IMG/VR virus record: IMGVR_UViG_3300050143_000080
Coordinates: 1 to 37,274 of that record
Reading direction: 5' to 3' (one strand)
Length of the DNA stretch: 37,274 bases
DNA from: a virus
Taxonomy: Duplodnaviria > Caudoviricetes
Shown one piece after another: positions 1 to 35,464 of the stretch. The notes under the pieces were generated by a model. The model was not told where the DNA came from. It worked only from the letters and a program-made list of their open reading frames with translations, and ran no database searches. Every line of letters begins with the position of its first letter. Position 1 is the first letter of the stretch. Position numbers and translations under genes: made by a program.

Positions 1-9
1 GGCGCTAAA

Positions 10-43
10 TCAAACGCTCGGCCTAGCGGCCCAGCTTGGTGTT
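10..43. repeat. Conserved hairpin motif, copy 1 (companion of attC-like site 1)
   Basis: TCAAA-C-GCT-C-GGCC-TAGC-GGCC-C-AGC-TT-GGTGTT; same architecture as 1059-1096; ends 28 nt before GCCTAAC. Confidence 0.6.
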
Positions 44-71
44 GTGCCCATGTTGGGCGGTGTGGCTACTG

Positions 72-126
72 GCCTAACTCTCCGTTCAACGCGGACGCTT
101 CGCGCCGGTTAACTTTTGGGTTAGGC
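72..126 (+). other. Integron attC-like recombination site 1 (55 bp)
   Basis: GCCTAAC-TCTCC-GTTCAAC-GCGGACGCTTCGCGCCG-GTTAAC-TTTTGG-GTTAGGC: RYYYAAC and GTTRRRY cores, 5/6-nt spacers, L boxes with one unpaired C, central hairpin. Confidence 0.8.
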
Positions 127-345
127 CTTCAAGCCCAGGGCTTCGCGCATTGTTCTTTGCGCAGCCCATATGCCCTGTTGGTAGGCTTCGTTGCAGCACT
201 TGGCGGCAGCCTCCGCATCTGGCGCGGAGCTGAAGCGCATCTCAGGCCACAGCGTGCCAGCGTTGTAGCCAAAGCCATTGCCGGGCCCATCAACGCACGG
301 CCTACGGTCGCTGCCGATGCTGGATTTGTACGGTTTTGTGTCCAT
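121..345 (-). CDS. Hypothetical phage protein (74 aa, MDTKPYK...)
   Basis: GAGG RBS before ATG at 345; TAA stop lies inside the attC-like core. Confidence 0.7.
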   Translation of the reverse strand: MDTKPYKSSIGSDRRPCVDGPGNGFGYNAGTLWPEMRFSSAPDAEAAAKCCNEAYQQGIWAAQRTMREALGLKA

Positions 346-355
346 GCCGCGCCCC

Positions 356-742
356 TCAAAGTTCACAGAGGGTGTTCTGGCCTGGTGCATGCCTCGCGCG
401 GCACGCTGGGCAGGTGTCCTGTTCTTCCACATCGAGCAGGTCCACCGTGGTGTTTGCCATCTCGTGCGAGCAGTCATCCAGGAATTGCGCCTGGCCATCG
501 TTGATCCACGAATGGCAGCGGAAGTTGTGGCCCTGGGTCAACACGCTGGGGCGCAGTGTGGGTGCGTCGGTGCTGCCGTTCCACGTCCAGCAGCCGGTGC
601 CAGCGCGTGTGCCGCTTTGAATCACGGGTAGGGACAGGCGACCTGTTGGGCCTGGGATGTTCAGGGTCACGTGCGTGGCGTCTTCAGCGGCGCATGGCAC
701 ATAGCCTTCGCCATAGACCAGCCTCACGGGCAATGCTTTCAT
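356..742 (-). CDS. DUF6527-like Cys/His-rich protein
   Basis: WTWNGSTDAPTLRPSV and RCHSWINDGQAQFLDDCSH motifs; AAAGGA RBS before ATG at 742. Confidence 0.75.
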   Translation of the reverse strand: MKALPVRLVYGEGYVPCAAEDATHVTLNIPGPTGRLSLPVIQSGTRAGTGCWTWNGSTDAPTLRPSVLTQGHNFRCHSWINDGQAQFLDDCSHEMANTTVDLLDVEEQDTCPACRARHAPGQNTLCEL

Positions 743-774
743 TTTTGGTCCTTTGATGATGTTGCTGGGCTTGA

Positions 775-1023
775 TCATGCGGATGGCTCGGTCATCTCAA
801 CAAACGCGGCCAGGTAGCAAACAGCGGCCATGCCTCCGGTTTCTTTGGCTGCGTGCATCGCGGCCTGAAGCTCGTTCATTTCCGTGGTCTTGGTCATCGA
901 CTTGATGGTCTGGCTGTAGGCATCCATGCGGGCCTTGTAGCCGTCGCCAAACAGCCGCTTGGCGGTGTCGCGGCACTCATAGAGCTTGGCCGCCATCTGC
1001 ACGTGTTGCTGAGTTGCGTTCAT
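775..1023 (-). CDS. Hypothetical phage protein (82 aa, MNATQQHVQ...)
   Basis: GGAGAG RBS before ATG at 1023; helical-looking sequence; 3' part of track ORF 775..1386. Confidence 0.75.
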   Translation of the reverse strand: MNATQQHVQMAAKLYECRDTAKRLFGDGYKARMDAYSQTIKSMTKTTEMNELQAAMHAAKETGGMAAVCYLAAFVEMTEPSA

Positions 1024-1058
1024 CGTTGCTCTCCGCAAGCCTTCGGCCTGCTCGGTTG

Positions 1059-1096
1059 TCAAAGCGCCCACCGCTGTGCGGTCGGCTTGTGGTGTT
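1059..1096. repeat. Conserved hairpin motif, copy 2 (companion of attC-like site 2)
   Basis: TCAAA-GC-GCC-C-ACCGC-TGT-GCGGT-C-GGC-TT-GT-GGTGTT; ends 28 nt before GCCTAAC. Confidence 0.6.
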
Positions 1097-1124
1097 TGGT
1101 CAGGCCCTGGGCATCTGCCACCAG

Positions 1125-1181
1125 GCCTAACCGGCGGTTCAACGCGGACGCCTACGGCGCCGGTTAACCTGGGGGTTACAC
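1125..1181 (+). other. Integron attC-like recombination site 2 (57 bp)
   Basis: GCCTAAC-CGGCG-GTTCAAC-GCGGACGCCTACGGCGCCG-GTTAAC-CTGGGG-GTTACAC; boxes match site 1 while spacers and loop differ. Confidence 0.78.
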
Positions 1182-1424
1182 GGCCCTGGTGGCGGCCTTC
1201 GTGAACTCCACCAGGGCCGCGATATGCATCTTCTGGATAGCCGTCTTGCTGCTGCCGCCTTCCAGCCATTCGCCCACCGCGATCGCGCTGAGCTTGAGCT
1301 GGCGGGCGTCTTCCTTGGCCTTGGCTGCAGCGGCGCGCTCCTTCTTCAGGCGGTCGCACGGCTGCGATCTGCCATCCCTCAGCCACGGGTCATCTCCACA
1401 GTCGTTCAGGCAGTCGCACTTCAC
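1176..1424 (-). CDS. Hypothetical protein with N-terminal CxCxxxCGDD motif
   Basis: Probable GTG start at 1424 just after the upstream stop (start uncertain); TAA stop inside attC-like site 2. Confidence 0.65.
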   Translation of the reverse strand: MKCDCLNDCGDDPWLRDGRSQPCDRLKKERAAAAKAKEDARQLKLSAIAVGEWLEGGSSKTAIQKMHIAALVEFTKAATRAV

Positions 1425-1425
1425 C

Positions 1426-1842
1426 TCAGACCCCAACCGCCGTGGTCAGCAGTTCGTGAAAGTAGGTCGCACGGTCGGCAGACAGTTGGCTTACTTCAGC
1501 GGCTGCCATTTCGTCTGCGGTCATGAAGTTCTGTGGCTCGGCGCGATAGCCGTTCTCCCATGCCTCAAAGGCCTTGGCCATCTGCTCGATGTTGACCTTG
1601 ATGGTCTGCGGCTTGCGTGTCGCCTGGGCGCCATCCGCTGTGCCGAATGCAGCAATGCGTGCGCCAAGGATCTCGGAGTACTCCCACATCACTTCGCATT
1701 GCTCTTTCAGTCGATCTTGTTCGGCCGCGTCAAGCGTGGGGAAAATGGCGCTCTCGGCGATAAACTTGCTCAGGGCCGTGGCCTTGGTGTCCAGGTCGGT
1801 CTTCTCGTGAATGACGCGCTGTTGGTGGGGTCGCAGTTGCAT
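1426..1842 (-). CDS. crAss001_48-related protein with C-terminal extension
   Basis: PHQQRV..EK..LD.K...L..FI....F..L...EQ..L..Q...M..YS.IL..RIAAF pattern in the first ~66 aa. Confidence 0.7.
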   Translation of the reverse strand: MQLRPHQQRVIHEKTDLDTKATALSKFIAESAIFPTLDAAEQDRLKEQCEVMWEYSEILGARIAAFGTADGAQATRKPQTIKVNIEQMAKAFEAWENGYRAEPQNFMTADEMAAAEVSQLSADRATYFHELLTTAVGV

Positions 1843-3374: not shown

Positions 3375-3673
3375 GCCGCCTCACTGCTCTGGTCTGCATT
3401 GGCCGCAGTGCCTGCCGGCGCGATCGCGCCCATGGCCTGGATGGGTGCAGACACAACACGCAGGTGCCCGCGGCCCTTGAGGGTCTCGCGGTAGCAGTTC
3501 ACGGCCACGGCCTGGGCTTCCTTGGCCACGTCGCTGCCGCTGGCCACCACCTGGCCATCCAGCACGATGGCAAGCACCGCCGGGCGGCCGTTCACGGTCA
3601 CGCGCAGGCCCTCGTGGGTCACTGCGCTGATCTCAATGGCGCCAAGGGCGCCGGTGGGTTGGGTACCGATCAT
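3371..3673 (-). CDS. Hypothetical protein (100 aa)
   Basis: ATGA coupling at both ends. Confidence 0.7.
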   Translation of the reverse strand: MIGTQPTGALGAIEISAVTHEGLRVTVNGRPAVLAIVLDGQVVASGSDVAKEAQAVAVNCYRETLKGRGHLRVVSAPIQAMGAIAPAGTAANADQSSEAA

Positions 3674-4002
3674 GTCGAGGCCTTTCTGATGACGACACGG
3701 CCCTCACAGGGCTTGCCGATCTCTTGCAGGGTGGGTGCGCGCCAGATGCCCTGTGCGCTGGGTTGGGCGATCAGGTCGCCACGTTGGATGAGGTCTTGCG
3801 GCCGCGTGGGGCTGTAGCCCGAAGGCGTGGGCGCTGCGTCGGTTTGCTTGACCACGTTGACCATGCCGCTGGCCTCGCGTGACCAGTAGCAGCCCGGCTC
3901 TGGCAGTAGGCCCTGCACCAGTGGCACCAGCTGGCCCACCAGGTGGCGGTACCACATGAGGTGGTCGCTGCAGGTCAGGATGAGCAGGTGGGTGTTGGTC
4001 AT
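3670..4002 (-). CDS. Hypothetical protein (110 aa, MTNTHLL...)
   Basis: ATG at 4002 overlaps the methyltransferase stop (ATGA). Confidence 0.65.
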   Translation of the reverse strand: MTNTHLLILTCSDHLMWYRHLVGQLVPLVQGLLPEPGCYWSREASGMVNVVKQTDAAPTPSGYSPTRPQDLIQRGDLIAQPSAQGIWRAPTLQEIGKPCEGRVVIRKAST

Positions 4003-5624
4003 GCCGCGGCCCTCAGCTCGTGATGCATTGCTTTGTTTGCCCGCACCAGCGCTTCCAACGGGTGAGGTGACACGCTGTTGCCGCACATCTTGGTCTGGGC
4101 CTTCTTGCTCAGCGTGATGCGCTGGCCGTGCTCGTCAATGCCCCAGTCGATGATGTAGCCGCTGGGAAAGCCCTGCATGGTGTACAGCTCACGCGGCGTG
4201 AGCATGCGCAGGCCGATGTCAACGATCACGAACGGCTGCCCCTTGATCATCACCGTGACCAGTGCGAGGCGGTCTCGGGTGGTGATCGTGGCTGCAGGGT
4301 CCCTCAGGTCGCTCCATTGGCCGCCGGTGCCGTAGTAGCGCATCAGGAAGGCCGCAACCCGCAGGGCGCCTTCTTCTTGCTCGGGCGCCAGTGTCACAGC
4401 CACCAGCTGTTGCTGGCTGCCGGTGTTCGTGATGGTGCTGACAGGTTCGCGCAAGTCGCGGGCATGGGTGGTGTTGAAGCCACCATTCATTTGAGCCAGG
4501 AAGGCCGCACACAGGGCATGCTTGCCCGCTCCCGCCACGATGGTGCCCAGGGGTTGCTGCAGATCCAGCGCTCGCGGTGCTTGGCCCTTGCGTTCGCCAT
4601 AGCCTGTCTGCACCAGGGTGGGCGCCACCACGGCAAAGCTGCCGCCGGCGGGCTGCGCTGTGATTGTGCGCACGGGCTCTTGCAGCGAATCTACCCGGGT
4701 GCGTGACCAGTTGGCGATCTCCACCAGGAAGGGCTCACCAGCCTCAAGCACATAGCGTTTGATGCCAGTGGCCACACGTGTGAGCGTGGCATCTGCGAGA
4801 GGCCGCTTGCGCTCAAAGATGCTGGGCACCGGGACAGACCAGTCAATGCAAGATGCAGCCGATCGCCATGGCTTGAGGCCTTTGCCGGGCTTGCGTGCAT
4901 GGCTGGGTGCTGGCCATTGCAGCGGCAAGCCATCACAGCGGCCCACCATGAACAGCCGTTCGCGGGTGGTGGGCGCACCATGGTTGGCTGCCACCAGGGT
5001 GCCCCAGCGCAGTTGATAGCCCAGGTCGCGCAGCACGCTGGTGAAGCGGTGCCAGCATTGGCCCTTGCGCTTGGTGCATGGCACCAGGAACTGGCGGTCA
5101 ACGGGCACGCGCTCGCCTTTGGCTGCCACACGGTTGTTGCCGGTGGTGGGGTCGATGTCCAGCGTGATCACGCGGCCCGTGGTTGCGCAGCGTTTGGCCA
5201 CCAGGGGTGACCACTGCAGGATCTGCTCGACGTTCTCCAGCGTGAACATCTTGGGCGCCTGGCCACGCTTGGCCAACTTGCCCAGCCACTTGCACACCAC
5301 CCAACTGAGCGATCGCACCTTGCGGTCGCGCGGCTGGCCACCCTTGGCCTGGCTGAAGTGGGTGCAGTCAGGGCTCGCGTGCAAGTGGCCAATGGGCCGG
5401 CCGCGTGTCACAGCGATGGGGTCAACGTCCCACACCGATTCACAGAAGTGCTCGGCCTGTGGGTGGTTGGCGCGGTGCATGGCCACGGCCTCGGGGTCGT
5501 GGTTGATGCAGATGTCCACATGCCGGCCGTAAGCCTCTTCAAGGGCCGTGCTTGCGCCACCGCCACCGGCGAACAGGTCGACCCGCAGTTCGTCTTCGAT
5601 GTCGAGAATGAACTGCTTGCTCAT
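3999..5624 (-). CDS. DNA (cytosine-5)-methyltransferase, orphan phage type
   Basis: Motif I DLFAGGGG, motif IV SPDC, motif VI ENV, motif VIII TTRERL, motif IX RMLTPRE, motif X GNSV. Confidence 0.95.
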   Translation of the reverse strand: MSKQFILDIEDELRVDLFAGGGGASTALEEAYGRHVDICINHDPEAVAMHRANHPQAEHFCESVWDVDPIAVTRGRPIGHLHASPDCTHFSQAKGGQPRDRKVRSLSWVVCKWLGKLAKRGQAPKMFTLENVEQILQWSPLVAKRCATTGRVITLDIDPTTGNNRVAAKGERVPVDRQFLVPCTKRKGQCWHRFTSVLRDLGYQLRWGTLVAANHGAPTTRERLFMVGRCDGLPLQWPAPSHARKPGKGLKPWRSAASCIDWSVPVPSIFERKRPLADATLTRVATGIKRYVLEAGEPFLVEIANWSRTRVDSLQEPVRTITAQPAGGSFAVVAPTLVQTGYGERKGQAPRALDLQQPLGTIVAGAGKHALCAAFLAQMNGGFNTTHARDLREPVSTITNTGSQQQLVAVTLAPEQEEGALRVAAFLMRYYGTGGQWSDLRDPAATITTRDRLALVTVMIKGQPFVIVDIGLRMLTPRELYTMQGFPSGYIIDWGIDEHGQRITLSKKAQTKMCGNSVSPHPLEALVRANKAMHHELRAAA

Positions 5625-11577: not shown

Positions 11578-12099
11578 TCACATCAGCACAACGTTTACGA
11601 CCGCGCACCTGGTACTGGCGGTCTGCTGATTGATGAAACCCATGTTGAACTCGCGAACGTTAAGAGTTCCGCCAGCCTTGATGCGTTCAAGTACAACGCC
11701 TTTCACCGTCCCGATTTGCGTGCCGCTGTTGGCAAAGGTGTCGCACTCGATGGTGATGTCCTTTACGTCCTTCGCGCCCTCGTTGTGAACCTTGGCGCTC
11801 AACATCAGAATGTTGTTAAAGCCGCCTGCATGCCAGCTCGTCTTGTCCATCCTCATGGCGTTGATCGCCACTTCCTTGGGGTCAAGCTGTGGCAGTGGCG
11901 GGGTGCCTGAGGCCTGAGGCTGAGGGCCCTGTACCTTCGAGGAAATGATGCTGATCGCAAACGCCAGCCCAAAAAAGCCAAGTAGGCCCTTCGTGATCAC
12001 TGACATTTTCTTGACTGGCTTGGTTACACCGCACTTGGGGCAGGTCTTCGCTGTGTCACTGACCTCAGTGCCACACTCTCTACATTTGGCCATCGCCAT
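11578..12099 (-). CDS. Zinc-ribbon, single-TM membrane protein downstream of the repressor
   Basis: CRECG...CPKCG, then a TM helix, a Pro/Gln linker and a beta-rich domain. Confidence 0.85.
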   Translation of the reverse strand: MAMAKCRECGTEVSDTAKTCPKCGVTKPVKKMSVITKGLLGFFGLAFAISIISSKVQGPQPQASGTPPLPQLDPKEVAINAMRMDKTSWHAGGFNNILMLSAKVHNEGAKDVKDITIECDTFANSGTQIGTVKGVVLERIKAGGTLNVREFNMGFINQQTASTRCAVVNVVLM

Positions 12100-12116
12100 C
12101 TTCGGGCTCCCCCTGA

Positions 12117-12920
12117 TCAGAATGTTTTCTTTTGAAGGGCAACGACCACGCCGATGATGCGAAGCGCGTGGCGTACGCTGTCCATTGGGTGTTCGCCTGG
12201 GCAGATGGCTTCAAAGCCACCATTGCTCAGGCTGCGGTACCGACGCAGCAAAGGCGTGTCTGATCCAGCCACGGCAACAACAACCACGCAGTCATGCCAA
12301 GGTGAGGCGCACGGGTCGACCGCAATGATGTCACCGGCCACGATGGTCGGCAGCGGCGAATCATGCACTTCAACCGCCTTTGTTCGATCAGACACCGATG
12401 CGGTGATCGGTGCGATGAGTACCTGGGCCTCTGTGGGCCACTCCCTGTTTGGTGTGTTCACTGCAACATCCAGCAAGGCCCATGCAACAACGGGGGCCTT
12501 TGTCATGTTTGTAGCAGGTGACAAGGTTGTTTGCTTCGGTGTTTCCGATAAAATCTCATCCCACTTAGGAGGGGGAGTGCCTGTCACAAGCCTGACATTA
12601 CCCACTGAGAACTGGCTATCAGACAAGATCACTGCAGGGCTCTCTTGGGCCACAGCGGCAGGATTCACGAGAGCCTTGTATTCGGGGTGTTCCTTGTCGT
12701 ACTCACCTTCGCTGTGTATTTCATCTAGCCACCGGTATGGCTTGTTGAACTTCTCTTCAATGAAGCGCGCCTTGTCTTCGTAAAACGTGGTCTTGAGGTT
12801 GATCAATCGGCCCGCATAGGCTCCGCTCCAGCCCAGGAGTTTGCCCAGTGCTTCGTTGCTGAGACCTTCTTTGTCTCTGATCAGCCGTAAGTTTGCTGCT
12901 CGGATCATGCGTTCGCTCAT
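12117..12920 (-). CDS. cI: CI-like repressor (HTH plus degenerate S24 peptidase domain)
   Basis: N-terminal NLRLIR...LSNEALGKLLGWS HTH; C-terminal DS..P....GDIIAVDP...RIIGVVV; divergent from the cro-like gene. Confidence 0.85.
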   Translation of the reverse strand: MSERMIRAANLRLIRDKEGLSNEALGKLLGWSGAYAGRLINLKTTFYEDKARFIEEKFNKPYRWLDEIHSEGEYDKEHPEYKALVNPAAVAQESPAVILSDSQFSVGNVRLVTGTPPPKWDEILSETPKQTTLSPATNMTKAPVVAWALLDVAVNTPNREWPTEAQVLIAPITASVSDRTKAVEVHDSPLPTIVAGDIIAVDPCASPWHDCVVVVAVAGSDTPLLRRYRSLSNGGFEAICPGEHPMDSVRHALRIIGVVVALQKKTF

Positions 12921-12941
12921 GCAGGCAGTAAGCCTGCGACC

Positions 12942-12997
12942 TCAAACAAAAATGGTTCGGGTGGCGCTTGCTGATATCAAACAAATTAGTTTAAGAT
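12942..12997 (+). promoter_or_regulatory. PR-like promoter with two repressor operators
   Basis: TCAAAC-AAAAAT-GGTTCG (12942-12959), TCAAAC-AAATTA-GTTTAA (12977-12994); TTGCTG (12968) and TAAGAT (12992) 18 bp apart. Confidence 0.78.
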
Positions 12998-13005
12998 CGC
13001 GCACC

Positions 13006-13311
13006 ATGGATCTACGAACCTATCTGGCCACACTGGACGAGCCTCAAATTCTGAGCCTCGCGATCTCGTGTGACACAACGCCGCTCTACCTACGTCGCCA
13101 AAGCCGTGACATCCGGCGCGGAAAGTTCTACATGAACCCCCGCCTGGCCTCGCTGTTGGAGCAGCACACAAACAAAAGTGTTCGCCGCTGGGAGTGTATC
13201 CCGGTCGGGTGGTGGGTCATCTGGCCCGAATTGGTGGGTTCCCCAGGCGCACCGCCCGTGCCCGCCACAGAAGCTGCCAACGATGAAGGCCAGGCGCAGC
13301 AGCGCGCCTGA
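13006..13311 (+). CDS. cro: Cro/YdaS-like transcriptional regulator
   Basis: MDLRTYL...LA..C.TT..YL...P.LA..LE..T...V.R.E..P..W..IWPEL; divergent from cI. Confidence 0.85.
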   Translation: MDLRTYLATLDEPQILSLAISCDTTPLYLRRQSRDIRRGKFYMNPRLASLLEQHTNKSVRRWECIPVGWWVIWPELVGSPGAPPVPATEAANDEGQAQQRA

Positions 13312-13337
13312 CCACTGGTTTCAACCAACACATTGAG

Positions 13338-13607
13338 ATGCGCATGAGCAACCCCCTGCGAGTGACGGTGAAGTGCGATGCCTCTGCCCTGCAGGCAGTG
13401 TTTGACAAGCTTCGGCAGGCACCGAAGCTATCGGAGAAAGACGCCCAAGCTCTTTCGTGCTTCCTCGATGACCCTGCGCAAGTTCTCTGCATTGACGTCG
13501 ATCAGCTGCCCACAAGTGCAAGTGAGCTGAGGTTTTCGCTTCAGCCGACCGACCGTTTCCTTGAGTTTGTGTCCGCACTTCTCGCAGGGAATGTCGATCT
13601 TGACTGA
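13338..13607 (+). CDS. Hypothetical protein (89 aa), overlapped by an antisense zinc-binding ORF
   Basis: Co-oriented with the cro operon; could be a shadow ORF. Confidence 0.45.
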   Translation: MRMSNPLRVTVKCDASALQAVFDKLRQAPKLSEKDAQALSCFLDDPAQVLCIDVDQLPTSASELRFSLQPTDRFLEFVSALLAGNVDLD

Positions 13608-16858: not shown

Positions 16859-17146
16859 TGGGAAGGGCTGGGAATGGTTGTTCTGGATACCCTTCCCGCT
16901 GAAACCCGCATGGCTATTGGGTTTGCGTCGTTTGGGAAGGGTGGGAATAGTTATTCGCTGGCTATGTACGCGAGACACGCAGCGCACCACCTCACACATG
17001 CAAGTCAACGGGAAAAGAGCCCTTTGTTTTTTTGGGCTAAACCTTGCTTAAAAACTATTCCCACCCTTCCCAAAGCTCTAAAAGCCTTTATCCATCGGTG
17101 TTTTGCTGGGAAGGGTTGTTCAAAAAACTGTTCCCAACCCTTCCCA
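16859..17146. repeat. Nested inverted-repeat array, putative replication origin
   Basis: Six GGGAAGGG copies in alternating orientation; perfect 22-bp IR at 16931-16952 / 17053-17074; directly after the primase-helicase. Confidence 0.75.
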
Positions 17147-21188: not shown

Positions 21189-21239
21189 TGCACGTTGTGC
21201 ACTTTCTTCCTAGAAAGTGCACAAACACATCGGGACACT
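21189..21239 (+). promoter_or_regulatory. Late promoter 1: 36-bp repeat with 13-bp-arm palindrome, then TCGGGA and a -10-like GACACT
   Basis: TTGTGCACTTTCT-TCCT-AGAAAGTGCACAA at 21195-21224; exact copy at 33580-33615. Confidence 0.75.
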
Positions 21240-33579: not shown

Positions 33580-33630
33580 TGCACGTTGTGCACTTTCTTC
33601 CTAGAAAGTGCACAAGCCTTTCGGGATGCT
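33580..33630 (+). promoter_or_regulatory. Late promoter 2: second copy of the 36-bp palindromic repeat, then TCGGGA and a -10-like GATGCT
   Basis: 33580-33615 identical to 21189-21224; TCGGGA at the same spacing. Confidence 0.75.
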
Positions 33631-33868: not shown

Positions 33869-35464
33869 ATGAGCAGCAACGCCAAGCCCGCCCGCCTGAA
33901 CTTCATCGACCGCATGGTGGCGGCCGTGTCGCCGCAAGCCGGTGTGCACCGGCTCAAGGCCCGCACGGTGCTGGCCCACTACGAAGCCGCCAAGCCCAGC
34001 AGCCAGCGCAAGGCGCGGCGTGATGCCTCCAGTGCCAACCAGTTGGTCAGCAAGGGCGCGGTGCCCATGCGCAACAACATGCGCTACCTGGACCGCAACC
34101 ATGACCTGGTGACCGGTGCGCTCACCACCATGGTGAACAACATCGTGGGCCCTGCAGGCATCACGCCTGAGCCCCAGCCTCAGAACCTCGATGGCACCAT
34201 CAACACCGATTACGCCTTGGCATTGACCGAGGCGTACAACGACTTCCAGCGCCGCCCTGAGGTGACCTGGCAGCACGACATGAGCCACGTGCAGCGCCTG
34301 GTGTGCCGCTCGTGGCTGCGTGACGGCGAATGCTTCGCACAGCGCCTGATGGGCCCTGTGCCCCTGCTGGACCACGGCACCCGCGTGCCCTACAGCCTGG
34401 AGCTCATGGAAGCCGACATGCTGCCCATGGAGTATGACGAAGGCGACAGCATCCGCCAGAGCATCCAGCGCAATGCCTGGGGCCGCGTGACGGGCTACTG
34501 GGTCTACAAGACGAACCCCAGCGAGACCTTCAGCATGGTCAATGCGCTGAAGTTCATTCCGGCTGATCGCATGCTGCATGTGGCCCTGCGTGATCGCATT
34601 GGCCAGCTGCGCGGTGTGACGAAGTTCGCCAGCGTGATCACACGCATGGAAGACCTCAAGGACTTCGAGGAAAGCGAACGCATTGCCGCCAAGCTTAGCG
34701 CCATGCTGTGCGCCTTCGTGAAGCGCAATAGCCCGGTGGACATTGGCTATGAGGCCCCCACTGACTCTGAAGGCAAGCCTGTGAATCGCGAGTTCAGCAT
34801 GGCCCCCGGCATGATCATCGACACCCTGGTGGCTGGCGAAGAGATCGGCCTGATCGACACCAAGCGGCCCAACCCCAACCTGATCCACTGGCGCGATGGC
34901 CAGCTGCGCGCCTTTGCCTCGGGCATCAGCGCGAGCTACTCCAGCATCAGCCGCAACTACAACGGCAGCTACAGCTCGCAGCGCCAAGAATTGGTCGAGC
35001 AGTGGGTGAACTACGCCTCGCTGACTGACCTGTTCACCGAGCTGTTCATGCGCCCAACGTGGTCCGACTTCGTGATGGCTGCTGACCTGAGCGGCGTGGT
35101 GCGCACGCCTAAGGGCATCAAGCCTGGCACCGCTGACGCTTGCTTGTTCGTGGCCCCCTCGATGCCTTGGATCGACCCGCTGAAAGAGATCAGCGCGTGG
35201 GTGATGGCTGTGCAGGCTGGCTTTGCCAGCGAGGTCGAGGTGATGCGCAAGCGCGGCGTGAGCCCTGATGAATTGCTGCGCCAAGTTGTGGCCTGGCGCA
35301 AGAAGACGGCCGCCGCTGGCGTGGTCTTCAACAGCGACGCGGCCGTGTCTGACGCGCAGAACGTGGCCACGCAGAACAACACCGACCCGAACCCGAACCC
35401 GAACCCCGATCCCAACCCGGCCCCGGCAGACCCTGCCTCGGGCGACACCAACGCGCAGGCCTGA
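33869..35464 (+). CDS. Portal protein, lambda family
   Basis: YEAA, R.LDRN.D, IVG..GI..EP, DGE.F, RIGQLRG, NYNGSYSSQRQELVE, PWIDP.KE. Confidence 0.96.
   Translation: MSSNAKPARLNFIDRMVAAVSPQAGVHRLKARTVLAHYEAAKPSSQRKARRDASSANQLVSKGAVPMRNNMRYLDRNHDLVTGALTTMVNNIVGPAGITPEPQPQNLDGTINTDYALALTEAYNDFQRRPEVTWQHDMSHVQRLVCRSWLRDGECFAQRLMGPVPLLDHGTRVPYSLELMEADMLPMEYDEGDSIRQSIQRNAWGRVTGYWVYKTNPSETFSMVNALKFIPADRMLHVALRDRIGQLRGVTKFASVITRMEDLKDFEESERIAAKLSAMLCAFVKRNSPVDIGYEAPTDSEGKPVNREFSMAPGMIIDTLVAGEEIGLIDTKRPNPNLIHWRDGQLRAFASGISASYSSISRNYNGSYSSQRQELVEQWVNYASLTDLFTELFMRPTWSDFVMAADLSGVVRTPKGIKPGTADACLFVAPSMPWIDPLKEISAWVMAVQAGFASEVEVMRKRGVSPDELLRQVVAWRKKTAAAGVVFNSDAAVSDAQNVATQNNTDPNPNPNPDPNPAPADPASGDTNAQA
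35385..35402 (+). repeat. ACCCGA x3 tandem repeat encoding the Pro-Asn tail of the portal
   Basis: Three perfect hexamers within DPNPNPNPDPNP. Confidence 0.8.

Follow-up and report, generated by a model that had tools for sequence, protein, structure and literature searches.

Two attC sites in the early region of a temperate phage point to a mirror-image array of integron cassettes

The left end of a 37,274-nt contig from a temperate phage (IMG/VR record IMGVR_UViG_3300050143_000080, analysed at its full length and called the window below) carries two attC sites that enclose three genes, and these are likely to be the sites of a mirror-image cassette array whose genes are moved by the IntI of the host or of another phage. 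A broader proposal, to which we give somewhat better than even chances, is that phages run a mirror-image integron of their own, with a phage IntI lineage and an attI at the end of the early operon, attC placed at the stops of phage genes and a cassette pool shared with phages that lack IntI. The window is probably a member of a mirror-image phage integron system that resembles a CALIN, i.e. an attC cluster lacking an integrase (PMC9892861), and a modest one, showing two sites and no intI.

The temperate nature of the phage is apparent from its repressor, CII-like, primase, terminase, head, tail and portal genes. The CII-like gene, the primase, the terminase and the head and tail genes are on the plus strand from 13.8 kb, and the leftward early region has both attC sites at its far end, every gene in it being on the minus strand and therefore on the attC bottom strand (Table 1). 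The record is linear, 95% complete and ends 71 nt to the left of site 1, where relatives place intI. Over 1–134 the contig depth exceeds that of the following bin 8- to 16-fold in four leaf-litter runs, and the sharing of this leader and site with many co-occurring sequences is probably the reason why the contig stops at position 1. A left continuation was sought with the cassette-start pattern, which had 0 matches in metagenome contigs, and the assembled contigs gave no flank. Only three chance-level matches were returned by blastn of 1–1500 against 50,697 GenBank phage records, among which the terminase has no relative above 45% identity. The preliminary description had noted the absence of intI from the window, and the TIGR02249 (IntI) profile search confirmed it; no attI-like motif or other tyrosine recombinase was found in the contig either. 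The intI and attI that stand beside the array in a complete integron have counterparts in relatives (intI and an attI-like site) and not in this contig.

Table 1. Features at the left end of the window and the repressor gene that bounds the early region
Feature	Position	Strand	Remark
Putative 5' leader of a further cassette gene beyond the contig's left end	1..71	-	
attC site 1	72..126	top strand +, bottom strand -	predicted crossover between 120 and 121
74-aa gene, predicted ORF without assigned function	121..345	-	stop TAA inside R' of site 1
DUF6527 gene	356..778	-	start 778 or 742; PF20137 over cut-off, phrog_3362
82-aa gene, predicted ORF without assigned function	775..1023	-	single-gene inverted cassette in other contigs
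Conserved leader of about 100 nt	1024..1124	-	between attC site 2 and the start codon at 1023
attC site 2	1125..1181	top strand +	predicted crossover between 1175 and 1176
82-86-aa gene	1176..1424	-	stop TAA inside R' of site 2
138-aa gene, crAss001_48 domain (PF21825)	1426..1842	-	no attC at its end here
CI-like repressor	12117..12920	-	phrog_4; marks 1-12 kb as leftward early region

Other features of the genome lie well away from the sites. A 47-nt palindromic repeat occurs in two copies, 91% identical, at 21189–21235 and 33580–33626; the first directly follows the late transcriptional activator gene and precedes the head-protease gene, the second precedes the portal gene, and the repeats are possibly late promoters or operator sites. 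The portal gene (33869–35464 region) comes behind the tail genes, remote from those for terminase and head, and next to it is a gene for a 587-aa protein whose GDSL match is weak. Directly behind the primase gene, 16859–17146 holds inverted repeat arms of 97 nt, 72% complementary, with repeated GGGAAGGG-type motifs, and could be a replication origin.

The letters at both sites agree with the coordinates and boxes first proposed for them and follow the attC layout of RYYYAAC, a 5-nt spacer, L'', a variable stem, L', a 6-nt spacer and GTTRRRY. Site 1 has R'' at 72–78, the 5-nt spacer, L'' at 84–91, L' at 107–113, the 6-nt spacer and R' at 120–126, and site 2, the last of the array and on its repressor side, has R'' at 1125–1131, L'' at 1137–1144, L' at 1162–1168 and R' at 1175–1181. 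The R' of site 2, GTTACAC, makes 5 of 7 pairs with its R'', the incomplete pairing that had also been described. A scan for attC geometry on both strands of the window gave exactly these two sites, compared with a mean of 0.01 and a maximum of 1 match in 100 dinucleotide shuffles of the window. Because circularity was to be avoided, our own covariance model (R1) was built from 29 attC bottom strands of bacterial-type arrays, none of which matches the search pattern derived from the window. R1 placed the bottom strand of both sites on the minus strand, with 41.7 bits for site 1 (E 3.5e-9) and 25.8 bits for site 2 (E 7e-5), where the E-values are rough; nothing elsewhere in the window was significant, the best other place having 9.1 bits. 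A candidate at 21–58 was rejected at 9.1 bits, which is not significant, and a decayed third attC at about 1040–1106, proposed from its look and fold, was dropped as R1 has no match there at E <= 10. The window had no Rfam match at E <= 1, and the site pair was absent among the repeat families shown by an ungapped repeat finder.

The predicted fold of the site 1 bottom strand has a fully paired R box and three bulged bases, G16, C20 and T24, at the positions (16/20/24) of the extrahelical bases G16, T20 and T24 of VCR2 and G16, A20 and T24 of attCoxa2 (PMC5027507). The inner stem predicted for site 2 has the same three bulges, and its R box is mostly unpaired in place. Folding energy z-scores are -2.3 for site 1 and -1.5 for site 2, weak evidence when taken alone. 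The two sites are on the same strand and about 1 kb apart, an arrangement that falls within the CALIN definition of at least two co-oriented attC within about 3–4 kb. Judged from their letters and predicted folds, both are real attC sites.

The unit between the predicted crossovers, 121–1175, is 1055 bp long, and its excision had been predicted to give a perfectly paired core. This is borne out in silico, as the circle restores a fully paired R box with a pairing probability of 0.97–0.99 against 0.20–0.23 for the R box of site 2 in place. The pairing of G|TTAGGC at 120–126 with GCCTAAC at 1125–1131 is a weak test, both being the commonest box sequence. Neither the joint of 120 to 1176 nor the circle joint occurs in the assembled contigs of eight runs, which drop rare forms. 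Joints of 126–136 to 1123–1125 were rejected as traces of excision, since their sides are only 24–27 letters long, their positions are wrong and other attC-bearing contigs explain them. Among the loci examined the three genes of the unit are never together elsewhere, and it is single genes, not the trio, that recur beside attC. The three-gene unit is probably a composite that has lost internal sites, and we infer that exactly 121–1175 could be mobile.

The minus strand carries all three genes of the unit, which run antiparallel to the attC top strand; the gene at 121–345, like that at 1176–1424, stops at the TAA inside R'. A canonical cassette would have its ORF on the top strand, with its end at or before R'', a placement that none of the three ORFs has. 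For three of the four genes at these sites, homologs border attC elsewhere. A 125-aa ORF at 121–498, with no PHROGs, Pfam or NCBIfam match, was dropped as the first gene in favour of 74 aa, in view of 14 homologs of 72–79 aa (61–90% identity); the 74-aa gene has no PADLOC match, and its one located homolog (L419) has no attC model match. The DUF6527 gene has such a match (E <= 0.05) in 4 of 19 loci, and its 90% identical homolog in L392 begins 38 nt after an attC, behind a leader that resembles 44–78. For the 82-aa gene at 775–1023 the figure is 10 of 51 loci (E <= 0.05); homologs at 46–66% identity adjoin attC in L343–L354 and L374 as single-gene cassettes, in which the downstream attC differs from the first base after AAC, and the two closest homologs (90%, L341 and L342) have no attC model match. 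The leader of this gene is matched at about 71–90% identity in 20 further viral contigs, L324 and L325 with their intI among them, and its minus strand gave no match to a sigma-70 promoter or terminator. Beyond site 2, the gene at 1176–1424 has an 80% identical homolog in L030, which likewise ends in an R' box, behind an attC arm that differs; attC sites flank this homolog on both sides, and the right-hand one resembles 12–127 of the window. Positions 1–71 are 75–87% identical to sequence adjoining R'' in L062, L025, L030, L010, L071 and L088 and also to the leader between the attC and the g356 homolog in L392. PADLOC on five genes gave matches for one only (E 0.0075–0.046), and these were weak and inconsistent, so that no defence function is claimed. 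In a related contig from run X10 an attC right arm abuts the stop of the 138-aa gene at 1431, where this phage has no site, which amounts to a site gain or loss at a stop codon between close relatives.

The reversed orientation of the genes is general among related viral arrays. Four pattern scans of IMG/VR provided loci L001–L093 and one scan of GTDB genomes the same attC family in bacteria; the genes were called with our own simple caller, and the pairs in the counts are not independent. With this one caller and no rows dropped, genes at viral pattern sites are antiparallel in 90 of 109 cases on the left and 102 of 115 on the right, whereas those at bacterial pattern sites are parallel (109/131 and 83/119). 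At model-defined sites of viral and metagenome loci, the bottom strand carries 222 of 228 upstream genes and 205 of 215 downstream ones, and the stop codon is the TAA of R' in 98 of 222; five intI-linked arrays of bacterial type have their genes on the top strand (17/22 and 20/26). Inversion by majority was found in 89 of 92 selected viral and metagenome loci, some of which overlap on one contig. Five loci left out of this set were scored apart, L002, L003, L019 and L076 being canonical and L069 inverted. In the prophage L002, four attC directly after the repressor gene (3508–4960) have the bacterial orientation, so that prophages contain arrays of either kind. The stems of 134 viral sites covary, in an alignment fitted to the model. 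Arrays of attC are uncommon, not universal, in phages, and 80 loci with the methyltransferase of this phage gave 0 geometry matches and one weak 35-nt model match. The earlier remark that such arrays are unusual in temperate phages holds as to frequency, with none of those 80 loci convincing, and needs the qualification that clusters have already been published (PMC9892861).

Evidence on movement comes from box pairing and from breakpoints. Among 107 adjacent site pairs, 60–700 nt apart, the R boxes that flank one gene segment pair at 4/4 variable positions in 89, compared with 43 and 36 for the two boxes of one site and with a permutation mean of 35.9 (maximum 49 in 10000); the bacterial control gave 18 of 28 against 6 and 5. 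Such pairing would be as expected of cassettes moved by an integrase, and does not tell the strand, which the breakpoint does. The attC bodies of 14 pairs that share a gene 3' end have a likeness of 0.52, the same as the background (0.52), and the likeness is higher (0.65) in 56 pairs with a common leader. Same-habitat contigs agree with site 2 up to GTTA at 1178 and part from it immediately afterwards, and many contigs also part right after R'' at 1131. A strict link between attC body and leader was expected and not found, the bodies being loosely tied to the leader side and different in 44 of 59 same-leader pairs. Bodies that change behind a constant leader, together with the ends at 1131, point to top-strand or homology-driven exchange as well. 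The initial suggestion of a cassette array that shuffles early accessory genes, with gene boundaries of relatives at the GTT cores, finds support in the model scores, the cassette-end pairing and the breakpoints found at G|TT in relatives.

A true IntI is encoded by related phages. L047, a 42.9-kb phage with a similar ParB-like gene, has a protein of 461.8 bits on TIGR02249 (cut-off 265), and a scan with this protein found relatives in 28 viral loci. Gene maps of L303, L314 and L325 place intI in the early operon, between the repressor region and the phage integrase, with lysis genes beyond the latter. When the bacterial-type L326 is left out, all 77 model matches, in 21 loci of 27, have their bottom strand on the intI sense strand; the attC-to-intI polarity in phages is that of bacteria, and the phage cassette genes nevertheless point towards intI. 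A conserved attI-like element that starts with an RYYYAAC-like box precedes intI in 19 of the 28 loci from which the motif itself was derived, and as an independent check the motif has a match in the bacterial integron L225, in the stretch that separates intI from the first cassette. A tree of 29 IntI rows has 19 virus-borne proteins on one side of a 96/94 branch and suggests a phage clade of IntI, in a set whose virus-borne rows were fetched by likeness to L047 and which holds only 8 rows from named genomes; L322, labelled non-phage beforehand, falls inside the phage branch, and the label needs 2 changes on the tree. IntI is rare beside the arrays: of 69 attC-bearing virus records one passes the cut-off and two have truncated remnants (L037, L050), 11 of 13 such records at least 90% complete have no IntI, and relatives with the same leader (L011, L014, L015, L089) have no intI between array and phage integrase. 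Among Burkholderiales genomes with this attC family, 4 of 5 have IntI over the cut-off. The preliminary description had named a host IntI or an unknown recombinase; the host enzyme is retained here, and an unknown one is unneeded, given the true IntI of related phages, which is encoded in the same operon together with an attI-like site. Unlike other intI phages, L308 has attC sites and a second attI-like motif downstream of intI (11610–13380). Two records with no IntI match have an attI-like motif beside their inverted arrays (L068:2469 and L069:6381), which may be left over from the loss of intI. Two attC-bearing phages have two-gene pairs (L015:3980–5715 and L314:18976–20649) that resemble Avd and the reverse transcriptase of a diversity-generating retroelement.

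Lambdoid linkers and T4-type promoter stem-loops are conserved borders at which phage accessory genes are shuffled by homologous recombination, and the sites described here are likewise short shared elements at gene borders in variable early regions. It is unlikely, in our estimate, that they descend from integron attC and are now only shared border sequences swapped by phage homologous recombinases, with IntI irrelevant in the lineage. The lack of intI in this contig and, between array and phage integrase, in the four relatives with the same leader would suit such an origin, as would the intI remnants in L037 and L050, the mixing of attC bodies on both sides and the great abundance of sites and leaders in the same samples. 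The pairing of flanking R boxes (89/107) would however be useless without circularisation at attC, unrelated attC bodies swap exactly at AAC/GTT, the stems of the 134 viral sites covary (in the model-fitted alignment) and IntI genes are present in four of the five bacterial genomes with this attC family. Unlike the linkers and stem-loops, the sites are built as attC, and the matching site-specific recombinase is encoded by relatives.

Improbable to a further degree is an origin of the sites as independent cassette insertions at secondary GWT (attG) targets, harmless at TAA-C stops and without a working array. Relatives carry up to 10 or more consecutive sites with one gene between each, their cassette ends are complementary, their intI and attI-like site have the canonical polarity, and the L030 homolog of 1176–1424 has attC on both sides, all of which count against isolated insertions. 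The R' of site 2, which is not paired with its R'' and has no further site beyond it, is what such insertions would leave, as is the attC that a relative has at the stop of the 138-aa gene and this phage has not. IntI does insert cassettes at GWT sites genome-wide (10.1101/2022.09.11.507474), and this route may be the origin of new cassettes and of the last site. Like the SALINs and attG insertions of that work, the attC here have no integrase nearby on the contig and their TAA-C stop positions could be explained by GWT insertion; two sites, a shared leader family and multi-cassette relatives set them apart from those insertions, and the available text of that work does not deal with phage arrays. 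We give very little weight to a third possibility, that the hairpins are kept for an RNA role in processing or stability of the early transcript, the bottom strand being the mRNA strand. Although the hairpins come right after stop codons on the sense strand and a conserved structured leader comes next, there is no Rfam match and no terminator pattern at the sites, IntI substrates have the same AAC/GTT, box spacing and bulge positions, and the boxes joined by cassette-end pairing belong to different hairpins. The preferred explanation, a mirror-image array moved by IntI, has points against it as well, namely the contig's lack of intI, attI-like motif or other tyrosine recombinase, the poor pairing of the site 2 R box in place (0.20–0.23), and the divergence at 1131 together with the 44 of 59 differing same-leader bodies, which plain bottom-strand exchange leaves unexplained.

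IntI cuts the folded bottom strand at the AAC of R'. In a mirror-image array, IntI supplied in trans by the host or by another phage would excise and insert genes at G|TT, presumably acting on the folded bottom strand as it does in bacteria, and a cassette would consist of the R' bases, the gene or genes and leader in reverse, then R'' and the attC body. The repressor-controlled early promoter would take the place of Pc, so that reversed genes would be selected; on this account the inversion would exist because the array is read from the early promoter towards intI and not from an outward Pc. Many such phages appear to have lost intI yet keep the array. Homology-driven or top-strand exchanges probably also scramble the attC bodies, and the landing of an attC at a TAA-C stop, which is a GWT target, may be how new cassettes form.

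Qi et al. (2023) reported 17 CALINs in 10,705 phage genomes, and IntI1 recombined phage attC sites with attI1 in 5 of 6 cases (PMC9892861). The window resembles these phage CALINs (PMC9892861) in having at least two attC around small genes, with no intI in the record. Their Fig. 2D phage, MW202573, has 5 model matches, 4 of them with E <= 0.002, after the excisionase gene, and the bottom strand is on the gene-sense strand, the same inversion as in the window, which the available text leaves unremarked (PMC9892861). The TJE1 array of that study is in the bacterial orientation, unlike the window. Phage CALINs are treated there as captured fragments, and the available text describes no intI inside an early operon (PMC9892861). 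Mirrored arrays or intI in phage early operons were not found described in the literature covered, to which subscription journals mostly do not belong and which includes the accessible part of PMC9024848. Canonical bacterial integrons (L225, L413–L416, Burkholderiales chromosomal) share with the phage arrays the attC family, the attC-to-intI polarity, the attI-like motif (L225) and the cassette-end pairing; their cassette genes, unlike those of the phage, are on the top strand and point away from intI, whereas here the bottom strand carries the genes, and in relatives these are directed towards intI. In two Serpentinimonas barnesii contigs (L197, L252), arrays of near-identical 61-nt attC recur at intervals of about 240–320 bp; the short spacers between them are alike, and the cassettes seem to contain no gene.

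Integrons are regarded as devices of bacteria and archaea in which the cassette genes have to be directed away from intI, and the mosaicism of phage accessory genes is usually attributed to homologous or illegitimate recombination. A phage integron with reversed genes, read from the early promoter, would if true be a site-specific mechanism for this mosaicism. As ordinary phage genes, found also in places without attC, the cassette genes make the creation of cassettes directly testable. Gene traffic between phage and host integrons could also run through such a system, with the genes arriving there in an unexpressed orientation.
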